Shown here: positions 1 through 19,173 of the stretch, piece by piece | Layout of the letters: the number at the start of each line of letters is the position of its first letter | Numbering within the stretch: the first letter of the stretch is position 1 | Assembly: GCA_039586095.1 (NCBI GenBank) | Contig: JBDHLB010000007.1 | Location: forward strand, 3,941-67,940 | Direction: 5' to 3' | Source: Gemmatimonadota bacterium | GTDB taxonomy: Bacteria > Gemmatimonadota > Gemmatimonadetes > Palauibacterales > Palauibacteraceae | DNA length: 64,000 nucleotides | Position numbers and translations under genes: made by a program | Notes under the pieces: generated by a model | Databases searched by the model: none | Told to the model about the DNA's origin: nothing | What the model saw: the letters and a program-made list of their open reading frames with translations, nothing else

Positions 1-1119
1 TTCGGTCACATCCACGAAGCGACCGAGGTCATCACGTAGCAATCGGAGGGTGTGTTCTCCCTCGCCGCGTGTCGCCGCGACGATCAGGTCTTCATCGCCG
101 TCACCGTCGAAGTCACCGACGGCGACCGCGGTTCCCCGACCGCCGGTCGGAGGCGCGAGCGCTCCGACCGGGACCGTGTCCAACGCCGCGGTCGAAGTGG
201 CATCGGAGTACCGAAGGGTCGAGAGCACGAACTCCTGCTCCTGAATCTGGAGGGAGAATTCGTGGCTGAAGGTGAGGCCCAACAGACCGACGATCTCCTC
301 CGGCGGGCCGCGCAGTTCCTGAGCCGCCGCCTGAAACGGTGTCGTGACCTCGAAGTACGCACCGAATCGAGACAGGCTCGTTCGCGCTCCGGCCAGGTCT
401 CCGCTTCGGCCCCGGTCGATCGCCTCTTCCAGAGACTCCGCTGCCGCCTCTGGAAAACCGGGTGCCTGCTGGCGCAGAGCCTCGAGCTGCTCGATCGCCG
501 GATCCGCCCTGCCGGCCGAGAGAAGACTGCGGGCCAGCTCGAGTCGCACGGCCAGGTTGGCGGGAGCCAGTTCGATGGCCCGTTCGAGGTAGCCCCGCCG
601 TTCAGAGGCGCCCTCCTCGCCGCGATGACGTTCGACATGGGTCGCGAGCGCGTAGAGCGTGCGCAGGTGTTCCGGCTCGGCAGCCAGAGAAGTCTCCAAC
701 GTGACACGAGCCGAATCCGGCTGCCCTTCGAGCTCGAAGACGCGGGCGAGGATGAGCGCCACATCCGGGTCGGTCGGTGCCAGCTCGAGCGCTCGCCGAA
801 CCTCGCGTTCCGCATCTTCCACTCGTCCCGCACGCAAGTGCACAAGCGCCAGGTTCGCGTATCCCGCGGCCTCATCGGGCACAAGGTCGATGAGACGGGT
901 GAACTCCGCCTCGGCTTCCTCGAGCCGATCCTGCTGCAGGAACGTGAGGCCGTTCGTCCGGGCCAGAAGCGCCTCACCGGCCGCGGCGCGGACTCCCTCG
1001 TCCGCCTGTCGCTCCCCACACGCCACGGCTGTCAGCGACAGCACGACCACGGAGACCGGCAGGCGCCACCCGCGTAGACGGGATCGTGTGCGCACCGTGC
1101 AGCGAATCCGACGACCCAT
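1..1119 (-). CDS. N-terminal part of a TPR-repeat plus FG-GAP/ASPIC-UnbV (CRTAC1-like) lipoprotein; gene runs off the window start
   Basis: The minus-strand frame is absent from the ORF track because it has no stop inside the window. A manual translation from the ATG at 1119..1117 gives MGRRIRCTVRTRSRLRGWRLPVSVVVLSLTAVACGE... (signal peptide plus lipobox Cys). TPR-like helical repeats follow, then a VGDFDGDGDEDLIVA FG-GAP motif. The start ATG overlaps the upstream gene's TGA (ATGA). Confidence 0.7.
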   Translation of the reverse strand, partial: MGRRIRCTVRTRSRLRGWRLPVSVVVLSLTAVACGERQADEGVRAAAGEALLARTNGLTFLQQDRLEEAEAEFTRLIDLVPDEAAGYANLALVHLRAGRVEDAEREVRRALELAPTDPDVALILARVFELEGQPDSARVTLETSLAAEPEHLRTLYALATHVERHRGEEGASERRGYLERAIELAPANLAVRLELARSLLSAGRADPAIEQLEALRQQAPGFPEAAAESLEEAIDRGRSGDLAGARTSLSRFGAYFEVTTPFQAAAQELRGPPEEIVGLLGLTFSHEFSLQIQEQEFVLSTLRYSDATSTAALDTVPVGALAPPTGGRGTAVAVGDFDGDGDEDLIVAATRGEGEHTLRLLRDDLGRFVDVTE

Positions 1120-2957
1120 CACTCCTCCTCTTGTCCACCCCTTCCAGAAGTCCCCTCGCCCTCGCGCAGGTCGAGTGTGGTCCCCGAAGGCACCGAGCCA
1201 TACAGCTCCTCGAGACCTGACGTCGGCCATCGCACGCGCACGCTGTCGGCCGAATCCAGGCTGCCGAGTCCGAACAACAGCGGGTTCGATTCCGACTGCG
1301 ACAGGTAGGAGGAGCCGGCGCGGACCATTCGGCGCTGGACGAGATCGCCGGCATAGACGGTCACGACCGCGCCGACGGCCGATCGATTCGGCGGCCGGGC
1401 GACGAGCTTCACCCGTATCCACGCCGCAGTTCGGGACGGCAGATCGTTCCGCAGCAGGCGGGGTCGCCCACCGTTCGCCGTGATGATGACATCCAGATCG
1501 CCGTCGCGATCGTAATCCGCGGTCGCGATGCCGCGGCCTACCATCGGCTCCTGGAACGACTCCCCCACCACGTCGCTCACGTCCTCGAACTGACCCTGAC
1601 CCGTGTTCTGGAAGAGCTGAGGCCTTTGCGCGAAGGTGACGTCTCGCATGACGGCGTTCACCTCCGGTTCAATGTGTCCGTTTCCGGTCACCAAGTCGAC
1701 ATAGCCGTCAGAATTCAGATCGGCGAACGCGAGCCCGAAGGTGAGGGGAAGAAGAGTCGATCGTGTGATGCGCGCGGAGCCGGCGAGGTCCTGGAACACC
1801 TGTTCGCCGATCTGCGTGTAGAGCGATACCGGCTCGTTGGAGAAGTTGCCGATCGCGATCGAGAGACGTCCCTGCCCTGTCACGTCCGCGACGTCCACAC
1901 CCATTCCGGCACGAGCCCGACCGAACTCGTCGAACGCCACCCCCGCCGCGACGGCGACGTCCGTAAAGGCACCCGTTCCGTCGTTGAGATAGAGGAAGTT
2001 CTGATAGGTATCGTTCGCGACCACGATATCGGGCCACCCGTCCTGGTTGAAATCCTCGACGGCGACGCCGAGTGACTTCCCCTCCGGCCGATAGACCCCG
2101 GCCGTGCGCGTCATGTCCTCGAAGTCCCGCCCGTCGCGATTCCGGTACAGCCGGCAGCTTTCTCCATCGTACTGCTGTGGCGTCGCGTACGACTTGTTCG
2201 TGCCGTCCAGAGTAGTGAACAGGTCGGTCTTCGGAGTCCAGCGCACGTAGTTGCATACGAAGAGGTCCAGCCAGCCGTCTCGATCGGTATCCACCCACGC
2301 CGCACCGGTGGACCAGGACGGTGGATCGCCCGGCATCCCGCTGTTGCCATGTGCTCCGGTCCGCATCGTCACGTCGGTGAAGCGTCCGCCGTCATTGCGG
2401 AGCAGGCGGTTCGTACCGACGGCTGTCAGGTAGAGGTCGGGGTCCCCGTCGGCATCGTAATCGGCTGCCGTGACGCCCATCCCATACAGGGGCAGCGCGA
2501 GACCGGCCTCCTCCGTCACATCCTCGAATCGCCCGTTGCCCAGGTTCCGATAGAGGCGCGAGTAAGGGGTCGCCCCGGTTCCCCGTCGTCCCGGCCATGG
2601 CGCGCCGTTGACCAGCAGAAGATCGGGCCAGCCGTCGGTGTCGTAATCGAAGAACGCCGCCCCGCTGCCCATCGTCTCGGGCATCCATTTCTCGCCGAAG
2701 GCACCGGTCTCGTGGACGAACGTGATGCCCGATGCGGTCGTGACGTCCTCGAAGCGCATGGCCGTCTCGACTTCCCTTCCCGGAAGCGTCGCATACGTGG
2801 GCCGCGCGTACGCGGGTTCGGTCGTCGGCGGCTCTGCATCGTCGCAGCCTGTTGCGAAAGCCGGGAGGAGGGAAAGCAGCACCACCGGGACGGAGACGGC
2901 AACCGGCGACGGGAGTGAGCCCCCCGGGCCGAGCGAGCCATGGAGATCGTTATTCAC
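1119..2957 (-). CDS. ASPIC/UnbV-type FG-GAP repeat lipoprotein (CRTAC1 family)
   Basis: 612-aa ORF with a lipoprotein signal (LLPAFATGC). It carries multiple FG-GAP-like DxDxDG motifs (DYDTDGWPDLLL, DYDADGDPDLYL, DTDRDGWLDLFV, DFNQDGWPDIVV, DLNSDGYVDLV, DYDRDGDLDVII) and a C-terminal UnbV/ASPIC-like region. Its start lies 8 bp inside the upstream cytochrome gene. Confidence 0.8.
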   Translation of the reverse strand: MNNDLHGSLGPGGSLPSPVAVSVPVVLLSLLPAFATGCDDAEPPTTEPAYARPTYATLPGREVETAMRFEDVTTASGITFVHETGAFGEKWMPETMGSGAAFFDYDTDGWPDLLLVNGAPWPGRRGTGATPYSRLYRNLGNGRFEDVTEEAGLALPLYGMGVTAADYDADGDPDLYLTAVGTNRLLRNDGGRFTDVTMRTGAHGNSGMPGDPPSWSTGAAWVDTDRDGWLDLFVCNYVRWTPKTDLFTTLDGTNKSYATPQQYDGESCRLYRNRDGRDFEDMTRTAGVYRPEGKSLGVAVEDFNQDGWPDIVVANDTYQNFLYLNDGTGAFTDVAVAAGVAFDEFGRARAGMGVDVADVTGQGRLSIAIGNFSNEPVSLYTQIGEQVFQDLAGSARITRSTLLPLTFGLAFADLNSDGYVDLVTGNGHIEPEVNAVMRDVTFAQRPQLFQNTGQGQFEDVSDVVGESFQEPMVGRGIATADYDRDGDLDVIITANGGRPRLLRNDLPSRTAAWIRVKLVARPPNRSAVGAVVTVYAGDLVQRRMVRAGSSYLSQSESNPLLFGLGSLDSADSVRVRWPTSGLEELYGSVPSGTTLDLREGEGTSGRGGQEEE

Positions 2958-5940
2958 CGGCGACTCTCTCGAGTCGGTGCGTGTGGATCGGCTGCGCCAT
3001 CAGGTTCACGCCGGGGTGTGCTCGACGGTACGCGCCCGCAACGGCCTGGGCCGCCTCGTCGATGCGGTACCGTTCGTACGCGGCCTCCGCGGCAGCGGCT
3101 TCGACCTCCCGTCCGAGGGCCCGGAGGACCAGCATGCGGTGATAGTGCGCGACTCGATCCTCCGGATCTATCCTCAGGACGCGGTCCAGCGAGACCAGGG
3201 CCTCTTCGTACTGCCGGTGCAGGTACAGCGTGCGGCCGAGATTTCGCCACGCCGCCCGATCCTCGGGGAAAACCTCGAGGACTCTCCGGAACGCGAGAAT
3301 CGCGTCCTCGTACCGTCCGTCTTCCTGCAGCACCTGCCCCCACACCCAGGCGGCACGTGGATCGCCGGGCCGGATGCCCTCTGCCTCTTGGAGAAGGTCG
3401 TATGCGGCATTCAGGTTGCCGTCCCGCAGAGCGGTTCGAGCCATGTTGAGCGGGCCGTCGGTCCGGTCCGGATGCGCGGCACGCACTCGGTCGAACGCAC
3501 GCATTGCGAGCCTCGTGTTGCCTTCGAGAAGCAGCGCGATGCCGTAGTCGTTGTAACGAGTCCAGTCCTCGTCCCTAGCCGCGGCCTTCTTCGCACTCCC
3601 GTCGGTCCCCGTTTCGCCGTCTGTCGACGGATCAGCGAGCGCTCCCGAGGCGATGGCGAACGACGCTTCGCCCGTGGCGATCTCGGTAACGGGGAGGTCC
3701 GGCACGTCCGCGAAGCGCCGGAACCCCTCCGGATTGGCTGCATACGCGAACTCGGTGAACGCGCGGTCGAACTTGCGCCACAGCAGGCGCGCGCGAACGG
3801 TCAGGTTTCCTCCCGCCGCGCGCTCCGGCACGACGAACTCGTAGTGCGCCACGTCTGCCGTTCCCGGGCCGATCACGTTCGAGGCCGCCGTCACGTAGAT
3901 GTCCTGCCCGTTGCGACGCTGGATTCGCCGGCCCTCGCGGTCCAGCAGCACGACACCGTACACGTGCGCGAGCGAGTCCAGGCGCCGGTTCGGGGCGATC
4001 GAGCCGCTCTTCGCGAGGATGCGACCGTCGCCTTCAAGCAGCTCTACCTCGAGCCATCCCTGGTTCGAGTCGTTCGTCCCGCCTGGAAACGTGTGGCCGA
4101 CGGCGCGATTGCGAACAACCACATCCACGACGACCCGCTCGCCTGGCTCCAGAGTCCGCCTCTCGCCATCCAATGCCAGAGGGGTCCGGTCGTCGCCGCG
4201 GCGGATCGCGAACACGTCGACGCTGAGGGCTCCGTCACGCAGGAACCTCTCGGTGTCGCGCAACGTGGCCGAGTCGCCGCGCACGTACGGGAGCGCCGTG
4301 TTCGCGGCCAGAAACCGGTGCGATCGCACGAGCCCGTCTTCGGCTGCCAGATCTCCCCGTGGCGCGGGCTCCAGCGGCATGTGGCAGTCCTGGCAGACGC
4401 GGCGCGATTCCGGCAGGTAGAACGTGCGCGCCGCATTCAGCGAGATGCCGCTGTCATGCCAGTTGTCGTACTCGTCTTGCCCGCGCAGCCAGCGGTACTC
4501 GTTCACCGGCTCGGTCAGACGGACCTTGTGGCAGGTCGCACAGAACTCCGGCTCGCTGTGCAGCGGCTTCAGCAGGCGTCTCTTGTGCACCGTGGGCTTC
4601 GCCTTGAGGGCCATGTCGTGAACGAAGGCCCTCCAGCTGCCGGCGGGTGCGTCCGCGAACAAGTACGGATCATCTCCAGTGTCGTCGATGTTGTAGTTCG
4701 CGTTGCCGGTCCTCCCGTGCAGCCGATCGATGGCATGGCAGGCGAGGCAGGTAAGCCCGGCTTGCGCTTCCCGGCTCACACGATCGATCGCCTTGTCGAT
4801 CAGCCCCGTGAACAGGAGCGCCGGGTCGTGACAGCCCGCGCACCACTTGCTCTTGACGGGGCCCGATTCGAGCGGCGCCTCCGGGTTCGCCTTCTGATGG
4901 AGACGGATCCACTCGTTGGGCGGGCTGCCGTCTGCTCGCAGGCTCCGCACGCTCGCCTCGTAGAACGGATTGTTGAACGACGCGAAGCGGTGAGCCGAGG
5001 CCGACCATTGCTCGACGGTGTCGGGGTGGCAGCGCACACAGCCTTCCGCGCCGATCGGGGCTTCGGAGGCGAAGCCCTCAGTCCGGACCTCGTCGATCGG
5101 GCTCGGCGTCGTCTTGCTGCCGTCGCCCGGTGTGAAAACGCGCGCGGGCACCAGACCGCCCGACGTCGTGGTCGCCGGTGACGGGAAGAAGAGGCTCTGT
5201 GGGGGTACGAAGTCGGCGGCGACAAAGGACGAGTCCGAGAACTCTTCTGGCGACCGATCAGCACCGCTCGGACCCGTTCCAAGGGTCGCATCCAGAGCGA
5301 TCTGCGCCTCCGGCCCCTTCCGCGTATCGTTGCCACCGGCGACGTGCGCGGCCACAAGCAATACGCCCGCGCCAGCGACGGCCAGCGCGTAGCGACCGAT
5401 CGAAGACCGGGCCGGGCGTGCCAGACTGACGAGTCGGTGCGCCAGATAGCCAAGCGGGATAAGCGCGGCGCAGGCAACGTGTAGCCACCAGGCCCACCGG
5501 TTCTCCTGGCTGGCCGCTTCCGTCAGAATGAAAAGCCCCGTGACGACGAGGACGACCGCCACGCCGACGAACAGGGATCCCGTGAGGATCGAGCTACCGT
5601 GGCGACGTCGCCAGACCCGCGGCAGGTGGGCCAGCACAAAGACCAGGACCAACGCCGCGGCAAGGAGTCCGATTCCCGTATGCGCCAGAAGAATGGCCTG
5701 AAACACGCTCGGCAGGGAGGTCGATCCGGCTGCCAACAGCGTCCAGCCCAGCCCGTCCGCCAGCCGATTGAGAAGCAGATAGAGCGCGCTGGCAAGCATG
5801 AAGCCTGCCAGCACCACCGTCACGCGCAGCAACATGCGCACGCGCGGCGGCAGCAGTGAAGGAAGATTCGGCCGGCCGCTGGGTCTCTCAGGCATGATAC
5901 CGTCTACCCGAACCGGAGCGGCCTGTGCGCCAGGCCCCAC
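2950..5940 (-). CDS. membrane-anchored pentaheme c-type cytochrome with C-terminal TPR domain
   Basis: 996-aa ORF. The N-terminal ~230 aa has 5-6 hydrophobic helices. Five CxxCH heme-binding motifs are present (CVRCH, CAGCH, CLACH, CATCH, CQDCH). The C-terminal ~250 aa is TPR-like. The true start may be an internal Met (MPERPSG or MLLRVTV). Confidence 0.75.
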   Translation of the reverse strand: MGPGAQAAPVRVDGIMPERPSGRPNLPSLLPPRVRMLLRVTVVLAGFMLASALYLLLNRLADGLGWTLLAAGSTSLPSVFQAILLAHTGIGLLAAALVLVFVLAHLPRVWRRRHGSSILTGSLFVGVAVVLVVTGLFILTEAASQENRWAWWLHVACAALIPLGYLAHRLVSLARPARSSIGRYALAVAGAGVLLVAAHVAGGNDTRKGPEAQIALDATLGTGPSGADRSPEEFSDSSFVAADFVPPQSLFFPSPATTTSGGLVPARVFTPGDGSKTTPSPIDEVRTEGFASEAPIGAEGCVRCHPDTVEQWSASAHRFASFNNPFYEASVRSLRADGSPPNEWIRLHQKANPEAPLESGPVKSKWCAGCHDPALLFTGLIDKAIDRVSREAQAGLTCLACHAIDRLHGRTGNANYNIDDTGDDPYLFADAPAGSWRAFVHDMALKAKPTVHKRRLLKPLHSEPEFCATCHKVRLTEPVNEYRWLRGQDEYDNWHDSGISLNAARTFYLPESRRVCQDCHMPLEPAPRGDLAAEDGLVRSHRFLAANTALPYVRGDSATLRDTERFLRDGALSVDVFAIRRGDDRTPLALDGERRTLEPGERVVVDVVVRNRAVGHTFPGGTNDSNQGWLEVELLEGDGRILAKSGSIAPNRRLDSLAHVYGVVLLDREGRRIQRRNGQDIYVTAASNVIGPGTADVAHYEFVVPERAAGGNLTVRARLLWRKFDRAFTEFAYAANPEGFRRFADVPDLPVTEIATGEASFAIASGALADPSTDGETGTDGSAKKAAARDEDWTRYNDYGIALLLEGNTRLAMRAFDRVRAAHPDRTDGPLNMARTALRDGNLNAAYDLLQEAEGIRPGDPRAAWVWGQVLQEDGRYEDAILAFRRVLEVFPEDRAAWRNLGRTLYLHRQYEEALVSLDRVLRIDPEDRVAHYHRMLVLRALGREVEAAAAEAAYERYRIDEAAQAVAGAYRRAHPGVNLMAQPIHTHRLERVAGE

Positions 5941-5949
5941 ACCACGAGA

Positions 5950-6498
5950 CTACGAGTCCCCTTCCTCGATGTCGGCGGTCCAGCGTACGTCCACCGCCCC
6001 ACGCAGGGACTGCGCGGTCGGACACTTCGAGGCATGCCTTTCGAGCGCTCGCTCCACCACCTCTCGCGAGCCAGCGGGAATGCGAAGTCGATATCGGACG
6101 TGAATCTCCGTCAGGACCGGTAGCCCGTCGCGAACCTCATTGATGCCTTCCACGTCGGTGACGATGTCGGCGGGGTCGAGCCGGATCTCGCGCACCTCCA
6201 GTGCGCCGTTGAGCGTTCCGAGCATTCACCCGCCGGCCGCCGCCACGAGATAGTCCACCGGCAGAGGCAGGTCCTCGGCCTCGATCCGGTAGTGCTCCTT
6301 GATGATTCCGTGCACGCCCATATCGAAGTTCGTTCCGTCGTCCAGCGTGGCCAGCCTGTGCACGCCGGACACCTTCTCCACTCGGGCCCGTGCCGTGTAG
6401 AACGCGTCCGTCACTTCGCCCCCCTCTTCTCGTGGATGCCATCCCGATGCCGACGCCGCTTGGCCGGCTCGCGTGCAGAATATATGGGGTGCGGGCAT
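5950..6498 (-). CDS. OsmC/Ohr-family peroxiredoxin with an in-frame UGA (candidate selenocysteine) at the peroxidatic-Cys position
   Basis: Two adjacent ORFs (6226..6498 and 5950..6225) share one frame and are separated only by a TGA at 6226..6228. The joined protein reads ...PVDYLVAAAGG-U-MLGTLNGALEV...ERHASKCPTAQSLRG. This aligns with E. coli OsmC motif 1 (LIGAAHAACFSMALSL) and motif 2 (KAGCPVSQVLK), placing the UGA exactly at the first catalytic Cys. A hairpin lies 20 nt downstream. Confidence 0.6.
6190..6206 (-). promoter_or_regulatory. candidate bacterial SECIS hairpin downstream of the in-frame UGA
   Basis: The mRNA sequence 5'-GCGCAC-UGGAG-GUGCGC-3' forms a perfect 6-bp stem with a 5-nt loop containing GG. 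It begins 20 nt 3' of the UGA, so the loop sits about 26-30 nt downstream, within the usual bSECIS window. Confidence 0.4.
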
Positions 6499-6584
6499 GA
6501 ACGGGCATGAAAAAGAGGGACGGCGAACCGTCCCTCTTTCAATGCCTTATTGTGAGCCTGGTGGAGCCCAGGCCGCGTCTGGCC

Positions 6585-7757
6585 CTACTCCTCGGCTTCC
6601 TCCAGCTCGCCGCTGCGGCGCTTGCGCAGTCGCGCGCCTGCGTAACCCGCGAGACCCAGCCCGAACAGTGTCGTGCTGATGGGCTCGGGCACCTCGGTCA
6701 TGGGAGGCTCTTCACCCTGTTCGCCCCAGACGGGATCTTCCCACCCGTCGTCGCCACCCTCGTTGCCGTTGTTGCCGTTGTTGCCGCTGTTCCCGGAATT
6801 GCCGCTGTTCCCGGAATTGCCGCTGTTCCCGGAATTGCCGCTGTTCCCGGAGTTGCCGCTGTTCCCGGAGTTGCCGTTGTTGCCGGAGTTGCCGCTGTTC
6901 CCGGAATTGCCGCTGTTCCCGGAGTTGCCGCTGTTCCCGGAGTTGCCGTTGTTGCCGGAGTTGCCGCTGTTCCCGGAGTTGCCGCTGTTCCCGGAATTGC
7001 CGCTGTTCCCGGAGTTTCCGCTGTCGCCACCTTCCTCGTTGCCCCCGGTGGTACCGCCCTCGTTTCCACCCTGCGAGCCGCCCTGATTGCCGCCTGCATC
7101 GCCGCCCTCGCTGCCGCCACCGCTGGTCTCGGTGCCGCCTTCGCTTCCTTCATCCTCTGGGAAGCTCCGCACGACTTCCGGCTCATCCCCGCCGGGGAGG
7201 GCGACGGCCACCGCCGTGGGAACGGCAAGCAGGAACAGCGCAGCCACAGGAGCATCTCGATCGCACTCCTCGTCCCGCTCCGCCCGGTCGGAGCCGCTCG
7301 GGTCGTCCAGACCCGGGCGGTCTTCGTCGCACTGGACAAGGCCGGGATCCAGGGCAACAGCCGCGATGCCGTCCAGCCACTCCTCGGTCACATCGACGCA
7401 CCCGATGCCCGATTCCGGCTGGCATGTCATTCCTGAGGCGCTCAGAAGAACCTGAACATCCGCCGTTGGCCGTGCGGCGCTCGCGGCATCCGTGGACGCC
7501 GTCGGCATCGCCCGATCACGCGAAGCCTCCAGCCCGGTCGCGTTCGGCACGAATATCGACAGCTTCTCGCCGACGACGTCCACCTCGACACTGGCACAAC
7601 TCTCGTTCCAACCGCCCTGACACGCTGACTCAGAGGCGACAGCACTGCCGGCGCCTACGACCAACAACCAGGCAGAGCCGCCGGTGAGGAGCAGCATCCC
7701 GAGCATCGCGAGGCCCAGATAGGCCTGACGTCTCGATCGCGACCAAACCGTACTCAT
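6585..7757 (-). CDS. secreted PEP-CTERM-anchored protein with Gly/Asn/Ser low-complexity repeat
   Basis: N-terminal signal peptide (LAMLGMLLLTGGSAWLLVVGAGSAVA) and a Cys-rich N-terminal domain. A long (GNS)n tract follows. The C-terminus has VPEP, a hydrophobic helix and RKRRS, which is a PEP-CTERM sorting signal. Confidence 0.7.
   Translation of the reverse strand: MSTVWSRSRRQAYLGLAMLGMLLLTGGSAWLLVVGAGSAVASESACQGGWNESCASVEVDVVGEKLSIFVPNATGLEASRDRAMPTASTDAASAARPTADVQVLLSASGMTCQPESGIGCVDVTEEWLDGIAAVALDPGLVQCDEDRPGLDDPSGSDRAERDEECDRDAPVAALFLLAVPTAVAVALPGGDEPEVVRSFPEDEGSEGGTETSGGGSEGGDAGGNQGGSQGGNEGGTTGGNEEGGDSGNSGNSGNSGNSGNSGNSGNSGNNGNSGNSGNSGNSGNSGNSGNSGNNGNSGNSGNSGNSGNSGNSGNSGNSGNSGNSGNNGNNGNEGGDDGWEDPVWGEQGEEPPMTEVPEPISTTLFGLGLAGYAGARLRKRRSGELEEAEE
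6762..7032. repeat. about 15 near-perfect copies of an 18-bp tandem repeat (ggaRttgccgYtgttccc) with a 72-bp higher-order periodicity, encoding (GNSGNS)n
   Basis: Directly visible in the sequence between 6762 and 7032. The units differ only at 1-2 wobble or Asn/Ser positions. Confidence 0.85.
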
Positions 7758-16028: not shown

Positions 16029-16513
16029 GTGAACCTGCCTTGCCGTGGATACACGTCTCCTGGTTGTAAGACGTCCGCCGCATTTAGGCCGACGTCCGCG
16101 ACCAGTCTTTGCTGTTCTTATAGAGAGGCCGGAGAGCGGCCGGAGAATTCATGCAAGAGGTCTGGATCCTGGGGGGCACCCAGGCGCGGCAGCAGCCGTC
16201 ATGAGGCGACCGCGTTACCGCACGAGAAAAGACCGCTTCGCCTCGCGTGCTTCGAGAGGCCATGCGCTTCTTCCCCTTCAAACACACGTGTCTGGCCACC
16301 GCCGCCCGACCGTTCCTGCCGGGTTTCCCCACGGGCCGTGGTTCAGGACGTGAACGAATTTGGGCGAACGGGGGTTCCACTGCAAGCAAATGCGACGTTT
16401 AGGAAGCCCAGCGCGTGCGGATCACGCTGTCACAAAAAGAGTTCGGTGAGGGCAACGTTCAGCGGACGGAGGGTGGGACGGGGAAGATTCGGGGTGAAGA
16501 CGCGAGCGGATCG

Positions 16514-17386
16514 ATGTTGATGCGGGTGCTGATAGAGGCCGGGATCGGGCAAACAGACGACGGCAAGGATCTGATCACGGCCGCCCGAGCCGCCCTGCGA
16601 GGGGGACAGGCTGCGCTCCCGTTCTACGGAGACGCGACGGTCGATGTACGGTCCAAGGGAGCCGGCGGCCCCGTCACGGAGGCCGACCACGCCTCGAACG
16701 AAGCCATCCTGAAGCTTCTCGAACGGGAACGACCGGAGGACCCCGTTCTCAGCGAAGAATCGCCTTCCCCTTCGCCCGCCCGGCCCGCGGACCGGTTGTG
16801 GATCGTGGATCCCCTGGACGGCACGAAGGAGTTCCTGGCCGGGAACGGCGAGTTCAGCGTCATGGTGGGTCTGTCTCGGGATGGCGCTGCGGTCCTGGGC
16901 GCCGTGTTCGAGCCCGATATCGGGCGTCTGTACCTGGGCGCGATCGGCCTCGGCGCGTGGCGGGTCGACCGTCCGCTCGACGCCCCGTCGATCCGACCGC
17001 TCGATGCGGCCCGCACGGCGGTCGATCGCCTGCGCTTCGTCCGCTCCCGCTCACACCCCTCAGAACGACTGCGACGCCTGGAGGCTCAGCTCGGCGACTT
17101 CACACCGGTGGTGTCGGGATCTGTGGGGGTCAAGTGTGCTCTCATCACGAACGGGGAAGCCGATCTGTATGTGCATCCGGTGCCCTACCTGAAGGAGTGG
17201 GATACGTGCGCCCCGGAAGCCGTGGTTCGGGCGGCGGGCGGTCGGGTGACGGACTGTGCGGGCGGGCCGCTCGCGTACGGAAAGCCGCAGCCCGTGCAGC
17301 CAGGCGGGATCTTCGCCGCCACTCACGACGTGTGGTCCCTCGTGGCACCGATTGTGCTGCGAGAAACGCGGGACATGTTCGAGTGA
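16514..17386 (+). CDS. cysQ: 3'(2'),5'-bisphosphate nucleotidase CysQ (inositol monophosphatase family)
   Basis: IMPase-family motifs EESP...WIVDPLDGTKEF and the CysQ-type C-terminus. The start was chosen at MLMRVLIEAG; the ORF extends upstream to 16415. Confidence 0.7.
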   Translation: MLMRVLIEAGIGQTDDGKDLITAARAALRGGQAALPFYGDATVDVRSKGAGGPVTEADHASNEAILKLLERERPEDPVLSEESPSPSPARPADRLWIVDPLDGTKEFLAGNGEFSVMVGLSRDGAAVLGAVFEPDIGRLYLGAIGLGAWRVDRPLDAPSIRPLDAARTAVDRLRFVRSRSHPSERLRRLEAQLGDFTPVVSGSVGVKCALITNGEADLYVHPVPYLKEWDTCAPEAVVRAAGGRVTDCAGGPLAYGKPQPVQPGGIFAATHDVWSLVAPIVLRETRDMFE

Positions 17387-17435
17387 TCCACGTATCTTGC
17401 GGGATCCGATCGCGAGGGTCGGGGAGGCGTAGCGA

Positions 17436-17924
17436 ATGGAGCGAGGTGTGGGTGACCTGAGATCCGACAACGTCGTCTGGCAGACGGATCCAGTCAGTCG
17501 TGAAGAGCGTGAGGAGCGCCGAGGTCATCGCGGTGTCGTTCTGTGGCTCACCGGCCTCTCGGCGAGCGGCAAGAGCACCCTCGCCATGGAAGCGGAGAAG
17601 CGCCTCTTCGAGCAGGGCTACTTCAGCTACGTGCTGGACGGCGACAACGTACGACACGGACTCAACGGCGATCTGGGCTTTTCTCCGGAGGATCGGGTCG
17701 AGAACATCCGGCGCGTGGGAGAGGTGGCCAAGCTGTTCGCGGAGGCCGGCGCGATCGTCCTGACCGCATTCATCTCACCCCCCTACGAGCCACCGAGCGA
17801 CCCTGAACTGATCGTCGAAACGAACGTCCACGACGTGGACGAATGTGTGGGACGCATCATCGGATATCTGAGCGATCACGGGTACGTCCGCGGCGTCGAC
17901 CCGCTGCGTGCGCTCTCGGGCTGA
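17436..17924 (+). CDS. cysC: adenylyl-sulfate (APS) kinase homolog with an internal ~50-aa deletion
   Basis: The N-terminal 115 aa align almost residue-for-residue with E. coli CysC ([19 protein letters not shown]...DGDNVRHGL...[12 protein letters not shown]...VLTAFISP). The segment corresponding to E. coli HRAERQ...FIEVFVDTPL...DPKGLYKKARAGE...FTGID is absent. Confidence 0.7.
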
Positions 17925-17931
17925 GCCTACC

Positions 17932-19173
17932 ATGGGTTCGACGCGGGCTGCGTCCTCGGCCACACGCCCGGTGACGTCCCATCCGACCGACTCGAACAAG
18001 CCCGAGTCGAGCACCGTGCCAGGGCCGATCGCGCCGTACGGGGGCCGGCTCGTGGACCGCACGGTGCGACCCGACAGGCGACGGCAACTCGTCGAGCGGG
18101 CGGGGTCGCTGCCGGAGCTGCGGCTCGATGGCCGAGTTCTTAGTGACCTGTACCTGCTGTCGGTTGGAGCGTTCTCTCCCCTTGTCGGCTTCATGAGCCG
18201 TGAGACGTATGTGTCGGTCGTCGAGGAGATGTCGCTCCCGATGGGACTTCCGTGGACGATTCCTGTCGTGTTGCCTGTGGGGGCGGATGAGGTGACGGGC
18301 TTCGGACCCGGGGACGAAGTGGCCCTGCTCGCTCCGAGCGGAGAGCTGGCCGGCACGCTCGAGGTGAGCGAGGTGTTTGCGCGCGACGTGGAGCGGGAGG
18401 CCGAGCGGGTGTACGGCACGACCGACTCCGCTCATCCGGGCGTGGCCGCGATACAGGCTCAGGGGACGCATTGTCTATCCGGCGCCGTGCACTATGCGTA
18501 CACGAACGACATCAGCGGCTTTCCGGCCGATCATCTCACGCCCGAAGCCACTCGACGACACTTCGAGGAGGCCGGCTGGCGTTCGGTGGTGGCGTTCCAG
18601 ACCCGCAATCCGATCCACCGGGCGCACGAATATTTGCAGAAGTGTGCTCTGGAGATCGTGGAGGGGCTTCTCGTCCACCCGCTCGTGGGGGAAACGAAGT
18701 CGGACGACGTGCCCGCCGAGGTGCGTATGGAGTGCTATCGGGTCCTCCTGGAGCGCTACTTCCCCGGCGATCGCGTCCTGCTGTCGGTTCTGCCGGCCGC
18801 CATGCGCTACGCGGGCCCGCGCGAGGCAGTGTTTCACGCGATCATGCGCCGCAACTATGGCTGCACGCACCTTATCGTGGGCCGGGACCACGCTGGCGTC
18901 GGTGACTTCTACGGCACCTACGACGCCCAGCGAATCTTCGACGAAATCGACGCGGATGCGCTCGGCATCCGCCCGCTCAACTTCGAGCACGCGTTCTATT
19001 GCCGACTCACCCAGCAGATGGCGACCTCCAAGACGTCGCCCGCCGATCCCGACCAGCGGGTCTTTCTCTCGGGCACCAAGCTGCGCGAAATGCTCCGCCG
19101 TGGTGAGCGGCCCCCCGCCGAGTTCACCCGGCCCGAGGTCGCGAACATCCTCCTGCAGGCGTACCGGGATTGA
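17932..19173 (+). CDS. sat: sulfate adenylyltransferase (ATP sulfurylase)
   Basis: Motifs QTRNPIHRAHE and GRDHAGVG and the full ATP-sulfurylase domain. It is contiguous with cysC. Confidence 0.85.
   Translation: MGSTRAASSATRPVTSHPTDSNKPESSTVPGPIAPYGGRLVDRTVRPDRRRQLVERAGSLPELRLDGRVLSDLYLLSVGAFSPLVGFMSRETYVSVVEEMSLPMGLPWTIPVVLPVGADEVTGFGPGDEVALLAPSGELAGTLEVSEVFARDVEREAERVYGTTDSAHPGVAAIQAQGTHCLSGAVHYAYTNDISGFPADHLTPEATRRHFEEAGWRSVVAFQTRNPIHRAHEYLQKCALEIVEGLLVHPLVGETKSDDVPAEVRMECYRVLLERYFPGDRVLLSVLPAAMRYAGPREAVFHAIMRRNYGCTHLIVGRDHAGVGDFYGTYDAQRIFDEIDADALGIRPLNFEHAFYCRLTQQMATSKTSPADPDQRVFLSGTKLREMLRRGERPPAEFTRPEVANILLQAYRD

Follow-up and report, generated by a model that had tools for sequence, protein, structure and literature searches.

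OsmC-like selenoproteins and the Palauibacteraceae gene

An OsmC-like selenoprotein was described in 2005 from the Sargasso Sea, where three selenocysteine (Sec)-containing sequences of COG1765 with the motif UxxT (U, Sec) stood beside 10 homologs with Cys from the same data and another 17 from public databases (PMC1088965). OsmC-like selenoproteins are also listed in reviews of 2022 and 2026 (PMC9312934, PMC13188914), and the known family has been placed under PF02566 (PMC13188914). Here we analyze a gene of this kind on the minus strand of a 64,000-nucleotide (nt) stretch of DNA (the window) from a Gemmatimonadota bacterium of the family Palauibacteraceae (GenBank assembly GCA_039586095.1, contig JBDHLB010000007.1, positions 3,941 to 67,940), in which two open reading frames (ORFs; 6498..6226 and 6225..5950) share one frame and are split solely by a TGA at 6228..6226. 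An earlier, sequence-only reading of the window had singled out this pair as a candidate Sec-containing peroxidase and had noted that OsmC-like selenoproteins are known from marine metagenomes; the two ORFs are present as stated, and the marine precedent is borne out (PMC1088965). We are highly confident that positions 6414 to 5950 constitute one intact gene for an OsmC/Ohr-fold thiol peroxidase with Sec in place of the peroxidatic Cys, and we hold just as firmly that its UGA codon 63 encodes Sec. Proteins of this kind are already known; the gene represents a separate branch beside the described OsmC-like selenoprotein, and most members of its clade carry Sec, Cys being exceptional.

The window protein and the marine OsmC-like selenoprotein (YhfA type) have in common the PF02566 domain, a Sec instead of a redox Cys close to where the catalytic helix begins, a bacterial Sec insertion sequence (SECIS) hairpin with a G in its apical loop, and the existence of Cys homologs. 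They differ in the active-site motif, which here is U-M-L-G-T, with the Thr at +4, as opposed to UxxT; in their hosts, which here are Gemmatimonadota, Eisenbacteria, and Acidobacteriota known from metagenome-assembled genomes (MAGs); and in the balance of the two forms, with Sec dominant here (73 of 74 species) and 3 Sec versus 10 + 17 Cys sequences there. It is nevertheless conceivable, if unlikely, that the gene is merely a member of the described family (Sargasso 2005, COG1765/YhfA, NF041052): PF02566 is common to both, Sec lies in the region of the first catalytic Cys in both, and NF041052, annotated "OsmC-related (seleno)protein," is the best NCBIfam match for 16 of the 17 family members scanned, but the window protein reaches only 30.8 bits against that model's cutoff of 95 and not one of the 17 passes it (best E-value, 2e-09). 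Moreover, U-x-x-x-T is not the published UxxT motif (PMC1088965, PMC9312934), the family is structurally equidistant (12 to 23% identity) from OsmC, Ohr, and YhfA-type proteins, and the NCBI pipeline does not recognize these genes as selenoproteins. The assignment to a separate branch rests on this failure of both the score and the motif to place the protein within NF041052.

The domain assignment itself is straightforward. The sequence-only reading had taken the read-through product to be an OsmC-type protein, and the Pfam PF02566 (OsmC) domain is indeed recovered across the UGA (residues 49 to 145; 53.3 bits against a gathering threshold of 27.5). It had further placed the UGA at the peroxidatic Cys of OsmC and had noted an intact resolving-Cys motif. 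Both placements hold in phmmer searches against sequences from the Protein Data Bank (PDB), where U63 aligns with the first, peroxidatic Cys of Thermus thermophilus OsmC (PDB code 1UKK; AAHAG-C-FSMAL) and of Pseudomonas aeruginosa Ohr (1N2F; GYSA-C-FIGAM), and Cys131 of the KCP motif aligns with the second, resolving Cys of OsmC (GCPVS) and Ohr (VCPYS). Residues R9, R20, H35, D54, C131, and P132 are invariant in the family alignments. The models dedicated to the two classical families are not reached: the window protein scores 18.3 bits against the TIGR03562 (OsmC) cutoff of 85.8, and TIGR03561 (Ohr) is weakly matched by 2 of the 17 members, below its cutoff.

A structural model was made with AF2 (AlphaFold2) on a natural Cys form (P0002) that is 62% identical to the window protein. 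It shows the OsmC/Ohr fold with a predicted local distance difference test score (pLDDT) of 95.8, and Foldseek aligned it to 2ONF, 6EB4, 1QWI, 1UKK, and 1ML8 with template modeling (TM) scores of 0.65 to 0.86 and identities of 12 to 23%, the best structural match being the uncharacterized protein Ta0195 (2ONF). Against OsmC (Escherichia coli, 1QWI and 1NYE; T. thermophilus, 1UKK) and Ohr (P. aeruginosa, 1N2F; Chromobacterium violaceum, 6EB4) in particular, the TM scores range from 0.68 to 0.80. The peroxidatic column and the resolving Cys within a C-P motif are shared with these enzymes, and the chemistry is presumably the same; the family is unlike them in its identity in the above-mentioned range, its Sec for Cys, and the position of D54, offset by one from Ohr Glu50. 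Sec-containing peroxiredoxin (TxxU) and glutathione peroxidase (UxxT) also carry Sec at the peroxidatic position and have Cys orthologs, but they adopt the thioredoxin fold, in contrast to the OsmC/Ohr alpha-beta fold seen here.

From its sequence relationships, the window protein is probably a hydroperoxide reductase. By the established bacterial mechanism, SelB carrying Sec-tRNA(Sec) would bind the hairpin downstream of the UGA as the ribosome reaches codon 63, so that Sec would be inserted and termination avoided. By homology to OsmC and Ohr, the selenolate of U63, at the N terminus of the long catalytic helix, would attack the hydroperoxide and become a selenenic acid, which would react with Cys131 to give a selenenylsulfide; this would then be re-reduced by a thiol donor, e.g., a lipoylated protein or thioredoxin.

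Conservation of the UGA, both halves of the gene, and the hairpin

A search of 5.8 billion proteins with the window protein returned 989 matches. Among the best 120 of these, about 20 are full-length homologs (152 to 161 amino acids [aa]; 53 to 67% identity), and about 100 are proteins of about 90 aa, mostly from Gemmatimonadota MAGs, that cover just the C-terminal 57 to 59% of the query. All 10 of the truncated calls included in the alignment begin at the Met directly after the UGA column. In 16 of the 18 full-length metagenomic homologs this column holds Cys (GG-C-MLGTL), and in the seven Cys forms for which DNA was read, the codon is TGC or TGT. The 17th full-length homolog (P0003) has Trp in its public protein but TGA in its DNA; its public translation does not agree with the standard-code reading of that DNA, and its source (L083:283-768; Joint Genome Institute [JGI] Ga0643532_0110110) was apparently translated with a code in which TGA is Trp, making it a misannotated selenoprotein. 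A further protein (P0001) has GGA (Gly) at the Sec codon (L082:366-833; Logan SRR34348099, a 906-nt contig). On this single short contig the hairpin GCGUGC-UGGAG-GCACGC is still intact, and the Gly codon may be a read error or else mark a variant or inactivated allele of recent origin.

To this we add a scan of 185,579 species-representative genomes, which yielded 77 loci, of which 74 cover the UGA site. The column is TGA in 73 of these 74 genomes and TGC in one, so that the column in relatives, which the sequence-only reading had proposed to inspect for Cys, turns out to hold TGA or Cys. The loci were retrieved by a C-terminal K-C-P pattern, since the other peptide pattern contained Cys and cannot match a TGA gene; the TGA count is therefore not biased toward TGA. 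Most of the loci are from Gemmatimonadota (including Longimicrobiales, Gemmatimonadales, and Palauibacterales), and the others are from Candidatus Eisenbacteria, a few Acidobacteriota, and one "Multivoradales." Over 73 orthologs, whose two halves are always in one frame, identity to the window protein has a mean of 58% in the N-terminal half and 67% in the C-terminal half, and the orthologs diverge to about 40 to 50% protein identity without frameshifts or further stops. This pattern of sequence conservation points to purifying selection on both halves. L078 and L079, two assemblies of one organism, are identical in sequence.

The N termini of the homologs share a conserved M-[ST]-[DE]-x-x-Y motif, the window equivalent of which begins at the GTG at 6414..6412. 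Among the 44 loci placed by a start-motif search, 42 have a start codon (ATG, GTG, or TTG) at the position of this GTG and 21 have an in-frame stop no more than 28 codons upstream of it. On account of the conserved start motif and the upstream stops we take this GTG, 28 codons inside the ATG at 6498, to be the real start; the product is accordingly one of 154 aa (an estimated ~17 kDa) and not the protein of 183 aa and 19 kDa, begun at ATG 6498, that had been put forward before.

The sequence-only reading had also described a perfect SECIS-like hairpin, GCGCAC-UGGAG-GUGCGC, 20 nt after the UGA. It is found at 6206..6190 (Table 1), the mRNA after the UGA reading AUGCUCGGAACGCUCAACG-GCGCAC-UGGAG-GUGCGC; the hairpin spans nt 20 to 36 after the UGA, with the first base of the stem at 20 nt and the first base of the loop at 26 nt, and the stem has 6 bp, or 7 if a U:G pair closes the loop to GGA. 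The geometry likewise proved to be SECIS-like, with a conserved, covarying stem and a G-rich apical loop. For the comparative analysis, the 54 nt from the UGA onward were aligned without gaps for 74 Sec forms. The stem pairs (columns 23 to 28 with 34 to 39) are formed in 98.6% of the cells, compared with 6 to 64% when the partner column is slid by 1 to 3 positions, and none of 500 shuffles equaled the observed pairing or covariation score. Double-sided compensatory changes occur at three of the six pairs, in 31 cells: pair 23:39 goes from GC to CG, pair 26:36 from CG to either UA or GU, and pair 27:35 from AU to GC. RNAalifold recovered the same stem unprompted, together with the U:G pair that closes the GGA loop. 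In the loop (UGGAG or UGGAA), G31 is invariant and G30 is kept in at least 90% of the sequences. With the bacterial SECIS (E. coli fdhF and the bSECISearch consensus) the element shares its form, a stem-loop in the coding region soon after the UGA with a small, G-containing apical loop. It has no sequence similarity to the fdhF SECIS, and its 6- to 7-bp stem is perfect and lacks the fdhF bulged U. At 25 nt, the spacing between UGA and loop falls within the range of the bSECISearch consensus.

Because the hairpin sits inside a coding region, the evidence at the codon level weighs most. At five codons of the stem and loop, the Sec forms favor one synonymous codon far beyond its use elsewhere in the same genes: GGC for Gly +7 (91% at the site versus 43% elsewhere), GCA for Ala +8 (76% versus 10%), CTG for Leu +9 (97% versus 39%), GTG for Val +11 (98% versus 43%), and CGC for Arg +12 (85% versus 36%). 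Changes on one side of the stem are matched on the other, so that Ala, Val, or Gly at +8 goes with Val or Ala at +11 and Gly or Ala at +7 goes with a synonymous Arg switch at +12. Thus, the change of +11 from Val (GUG) to Ala (GCG) coincides with a change of the +8 Ala codon from GCA to GCG, that of +8 to Val (GUG) coincides with +11 becoming GCA, and that of +7 from Gly (GGC) to Ala (GCC) coincides with the synonymous change of +12 Arg from CGC to CGG. The compensated classes occupy several separate parts of the family tree and are hence not a single inherited event. In the seven Cys forms the constraint is relaxed: Leu is CTC in four of them, Ala is GCG and not GCA, pair 27:35 is a C·C mismatch in one group, and some retain a relic of the hairpin. 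A lower helix of 3 bp below the stem was considered as part of the element; it pairs in 82% of the cells, with 10 cells changed from CG to GC and 25 unpaired at one of its pairs, and we regarded it as weak and did not rely on it.

In a tree built on about 150 residues, the Cys forms make up at least two small clusters nested among the Sec forms, each of which has the synteny of its Sec neighbors (rimP-nusA or a GHL15-type gene). The Cys loci L080, L084 to L087, L068, L081, and L085 cluster beside the Sec loci L037/L045/L048 and L054/L060, with which they share rimP-nusA-infB or GHL15. Taken together, the nested clusters, the shared synteny, and the hairpin relics in the sequences suggest a Sec ancestor followed by secondary Sec-to-Cys switches, Sec and Cys having been exchanged independently two or more times at orthologous loci.

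Alternative readings of the codon and the Sec machinery

Three other readings of the TGA have to be weighed against Sec insertion. In one, translation would stop at the UGA and reinitiate at the AUG that directly follows it in most orthologs, and which gene callers accept, to give a split OsmC of 62 and 91 aa without its first catalytic residue. The sequence-only reading had named two separate peptides as an outcome that would speak against a selenoprotein. We judge this very improbable: the Cys forms conserve the Met just as well (CMLGTL), which makes it a structural residue and not a start signal, and six Sec forms (five reference-genome loci and the metagenomic L083; among them L013, L015, L027, and L058) have CTG (Leu) at this codon. 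No Shine-Dalgarno-like requirement is seen at the AUG, exactly the catalytic residue would be lost, and the conserved, covarying hairpin and the synonymous constraint would have no role.

Equally slight is the prospect that UGA is read as Trp, Cys, or Gly through a variant code or near-cognate read-through. The Trp of the P0003 public protein and the Gly (GGA) of one contig might be cited for it, but the DNA of the former is TGA, its Trp stemming from the source translation, and TGA is the main stop codon in the window, where it ends 23 of the 34 long ORFs as an ordinary stop, which rules out a genetic code with TGA as sense. The homologs have Cys, the peroxidatic residue, in this column, a classic Sec/Cys pair; a SECIS-like element is conserved after the codon; and selA is adjacent in two contigs (see below). 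Finally, the gene might be a pseudogene broken by a nonsense mutation, or its TGA a misread TGC or TGT. A single window could not exclude this, the public annotation as two ORFs would suit it, and the GGA of the 906-nt contig shows that point variants occur at the codon. It is ruled out for practical purposes by the other genomes: of 74 species, assembled independently, 73 keep TGA in the column, both halves are evidently under purifying selection without frameshifts or other stops, and L078 and L079 agree. The sequencing error that the sequence-only reading had allowed for is thus excluded.

Several observations weigh against Sec at this position, or against the way we read its surroundings. 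ARAGORN found no tRNA in the 64-kb window, and tblastn with E. coli SelA, SelB, and SelD sequences, used only as probes, found no selA, selB, or selD there; this says little, as 64 kb is a small part of a several-megabase genome. Among the top 120 matches of a SelA homolog search, none is labeled Gemmatimonadota, although few of the matches are named (those that are come from Eisenbacteria, Limnocylindria, and Sulfotelmatobacter). The folding energy of the hairpin does not stand out from that of dinucleotide shuffles (z = -0.12), but energy is uninformative at 66% GC, and comparative analysis was therefore used. Rfam gave no SECIS or other match at gathering thresholds and only chance-level matches at E ≤ 10. 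Three Sec-form orthologs deviate from the consensus SECIS: L024:10090-10149 has a longer stem around a larger loop, L071:143-202 has the stem shifted 3 nt upstream (GCCGCC-AGUCU-GGCGGC), and L031:10190-10249 has no clear hairpin at the expected place. Positions +8 and +11 are i/i+3 neighbors in a helix, so that their amino acid covariation could be partly protein driven; the bias at synonymous sites in the aligned genes argues otherwise. As for the chemistry, D54 comes one position after Ohr Glu50, the column of which is occupied by V53, and because of this offset from Ohr's catalytic Glu, a complete active-site triad is putative at most.

Indirect evidence for the decoding machinery comes from related loci. 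A true selA (L064:1738-3620; TIGR00474, 534 bits against a cutoff of 267.9) lies in a Candidatus Eisenbacteria locus and ends 2 nt before the orthologous OsmC-Sec gene. An 82-kb JGI contig (3300047160) encodes an 84% identical SelA, followed by a 63-aa ORF and a 92-aa OsmC ORF, which are a split call of the same selenoprotein gene. In these two independent Eisenbacteria-type contigs selA ends 1 to 2 nt before the OsmC-Sec gene, and the two genes apparently share one operon. The linkage is absent from L088, a contig with a more distant SelA. ARAGORN found no tRNA-Sec among the 15 tRNAs in the 1.19 Mb of fetched loci, where the probes recovered no selA, selB, or selD apart from the selA of L064. 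The tblastn matches to "SelB" were rejected as IF2, as their positions correspond to infB of L080, downstream of rimP and nusA. Further in-frame TGA junctions flanked on both sides by high third-position GC were sought across the window, and five came up, all resembling noncoding frames; the filter was crude and also missed the OsmC gene, so that this outcome does not speak against other selenoproteins in the window.

Genomic neighborhood and significance

The features of the locus are collected in Table 1. Upstream of the selenoprotein gene, a terminator-like hairpin with a 13-bp GC-rich inner stem separates it from a gene on the same strand (6585 to 7757) for a protein of 390 aa that has an extended (G-N-S)n/(G-N-N)n repeat, a weak collagen-repeat match, and a C-terminal PEP-CTERM sorting motif; the strand opposite this gene contains long spurious ORFs built from the same repeat. 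The hairpin is probably the intrinsic terminator of the PEP-CTERM gene, and since it closes that gene, the selenoprotein gene is taken to open its own transcription unit. A scan of positions 5600 to 6700 for consensus terminators found none; it also missed this hairpin, probably because the T-run falls within the stem.

Table 1. Features of the OsmC-Sec locus in the window
Feature	Position	Strand	Description and basis
Selenoprotein coding sequence, OsmC/Ohr-fold	5950..6414	minus	154 codons plus stop; GTG start at 6414..6412, TAG stop at 5952..5950
Putative ribosome-binding site, GAGGGGGG	6419..6426	minus	4 nt upstream of the GTG; inferred from the sequence
In-frame UGA, read as Sec codon	6226..6228	minus	Residue 63, peroxidatic position; column conservation and Cys in homologs
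TGT, Cys131, resolving Cys	6022..6024	minus	K/R-C-P-T motif; invariance in alignment and alignment to OsmC/Ohr
SECIS upper stem-loop, GCGCAC-UGGAG-GUGCGC	6190..6206	minus	Pairing, covariation, RNAalifold, and codon constraint
Possible lower helix, 3 bp	6187..6213	minus	6213..6211 with 6189..6187; 4-nt asymmetric internal loop; single-sequence minimum free energy (MFE) fold
Terminator-like hairpin	6504..6546	minus	MFE of -30 kcal/mol, z = -7.0, 0 of 200 shuffles as stable
Multiheme protein, 996 aa	2950..5940	minus	Five CxxCH, MtrC/MtrF-like domain, TPR repeats

Downstream, the multiheme gene begins 9 to 114 nt beyond the stop codon of the selenoprotein gene, according to where its start is placed, and Pfam MtrC-MtrF_II-IV matches its product with 32.8 bits, in addition to TPR families. 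The sequence-only reading had set the selenoprotein at the head of an operon with this multiheme cytochrome. That arrangement stands for the window's clade, the gene being downstream in only eight related loci (and about 4.5 kb away in two of them), and clade-specific cotranscription with the cytochrome gene is possible; it does not stand as a family trait. In other clades the downstream neighbors are rimP-nusA (8 loci) or a convergent GHL15-type gene (11 loci, mostly Eisenbacteria), and a cytochrome operon common to the family was thus ruled out, leaving local synteny and not a family-wide functional coupling. In the window (1119 to 5940, minus strand) the multiheme gene is followed by that for an FG-GAP/ASPIC-UnbV repeat protein (626 aa), and only the window's clade conserves this pair beside the OsmC-Sec gene. 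Elsewhere in the window (16403 to 19173, plus strand), a gene of the inositol-monophosphatase family, possibly CysQ-like, is followed by one for an ATP sulfurylase (PUA_2 and ATP-sulfurylase domains); these are genes of sulfate activation, and such enzymes could in principle act on selenate.

The public records that were checked, both in the NCBI nonredundant database (e.g., accession no. MDP2481131.1 and HKK27330.1) and at JGI, hold truncated, 89- to 97-aa C-terminal "OsmC family proteins," to which the JGI calls add an orphan ORF of 62 to 63 aa, the N-terminal stub. Hundreds of public gene calls for this OsmC-Sec family are thereby wrong, and the curated NF041052 misses them; a dedicated hidden Markov model with a Sec column would mend the annotation across the MAGs of Gemmatimonadota and Eisenbacteria. 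In the library searched, no paper was found that links Gemmatimonadota or Eisenbacteria to selenoproteins. The family speaks strongly, if indirectly, for widespread Sec decoding among the Gemmatimonadota.

A bolder view, to which we assign roughly even chances, is that the family is an undescribed lineage of OsmC-fold selenoproteins in which Sec is the ancestral state and dominates (73 of 74 species), Cys having replaced it on two or more occasions. The family would then be the signature selenoprotein of Gemmatimonadota and Eisenbacteria; where it shares an operon with selA, it may be chiefly on its account that the cells keep the Sec machinery; and its SECIS, lying in the catalytic helix, would have forced coordinated residue changes. 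Because Cys forms are nested among Sec forms, the family is a small natural test case for comparing Sec with Cys in a two-residue peroxidase, and its hairpin clearly illustrates how an RNA element within a coding region limits the choice of codons as well as of residues. Conceptually, Sec biology is unchanged, a selenoprotein of this kind being expected; the value of the finding lies in correcting a widespread misannotation and in documenting the use of Sec in Gemmatimonadota and Eisenbacteria.

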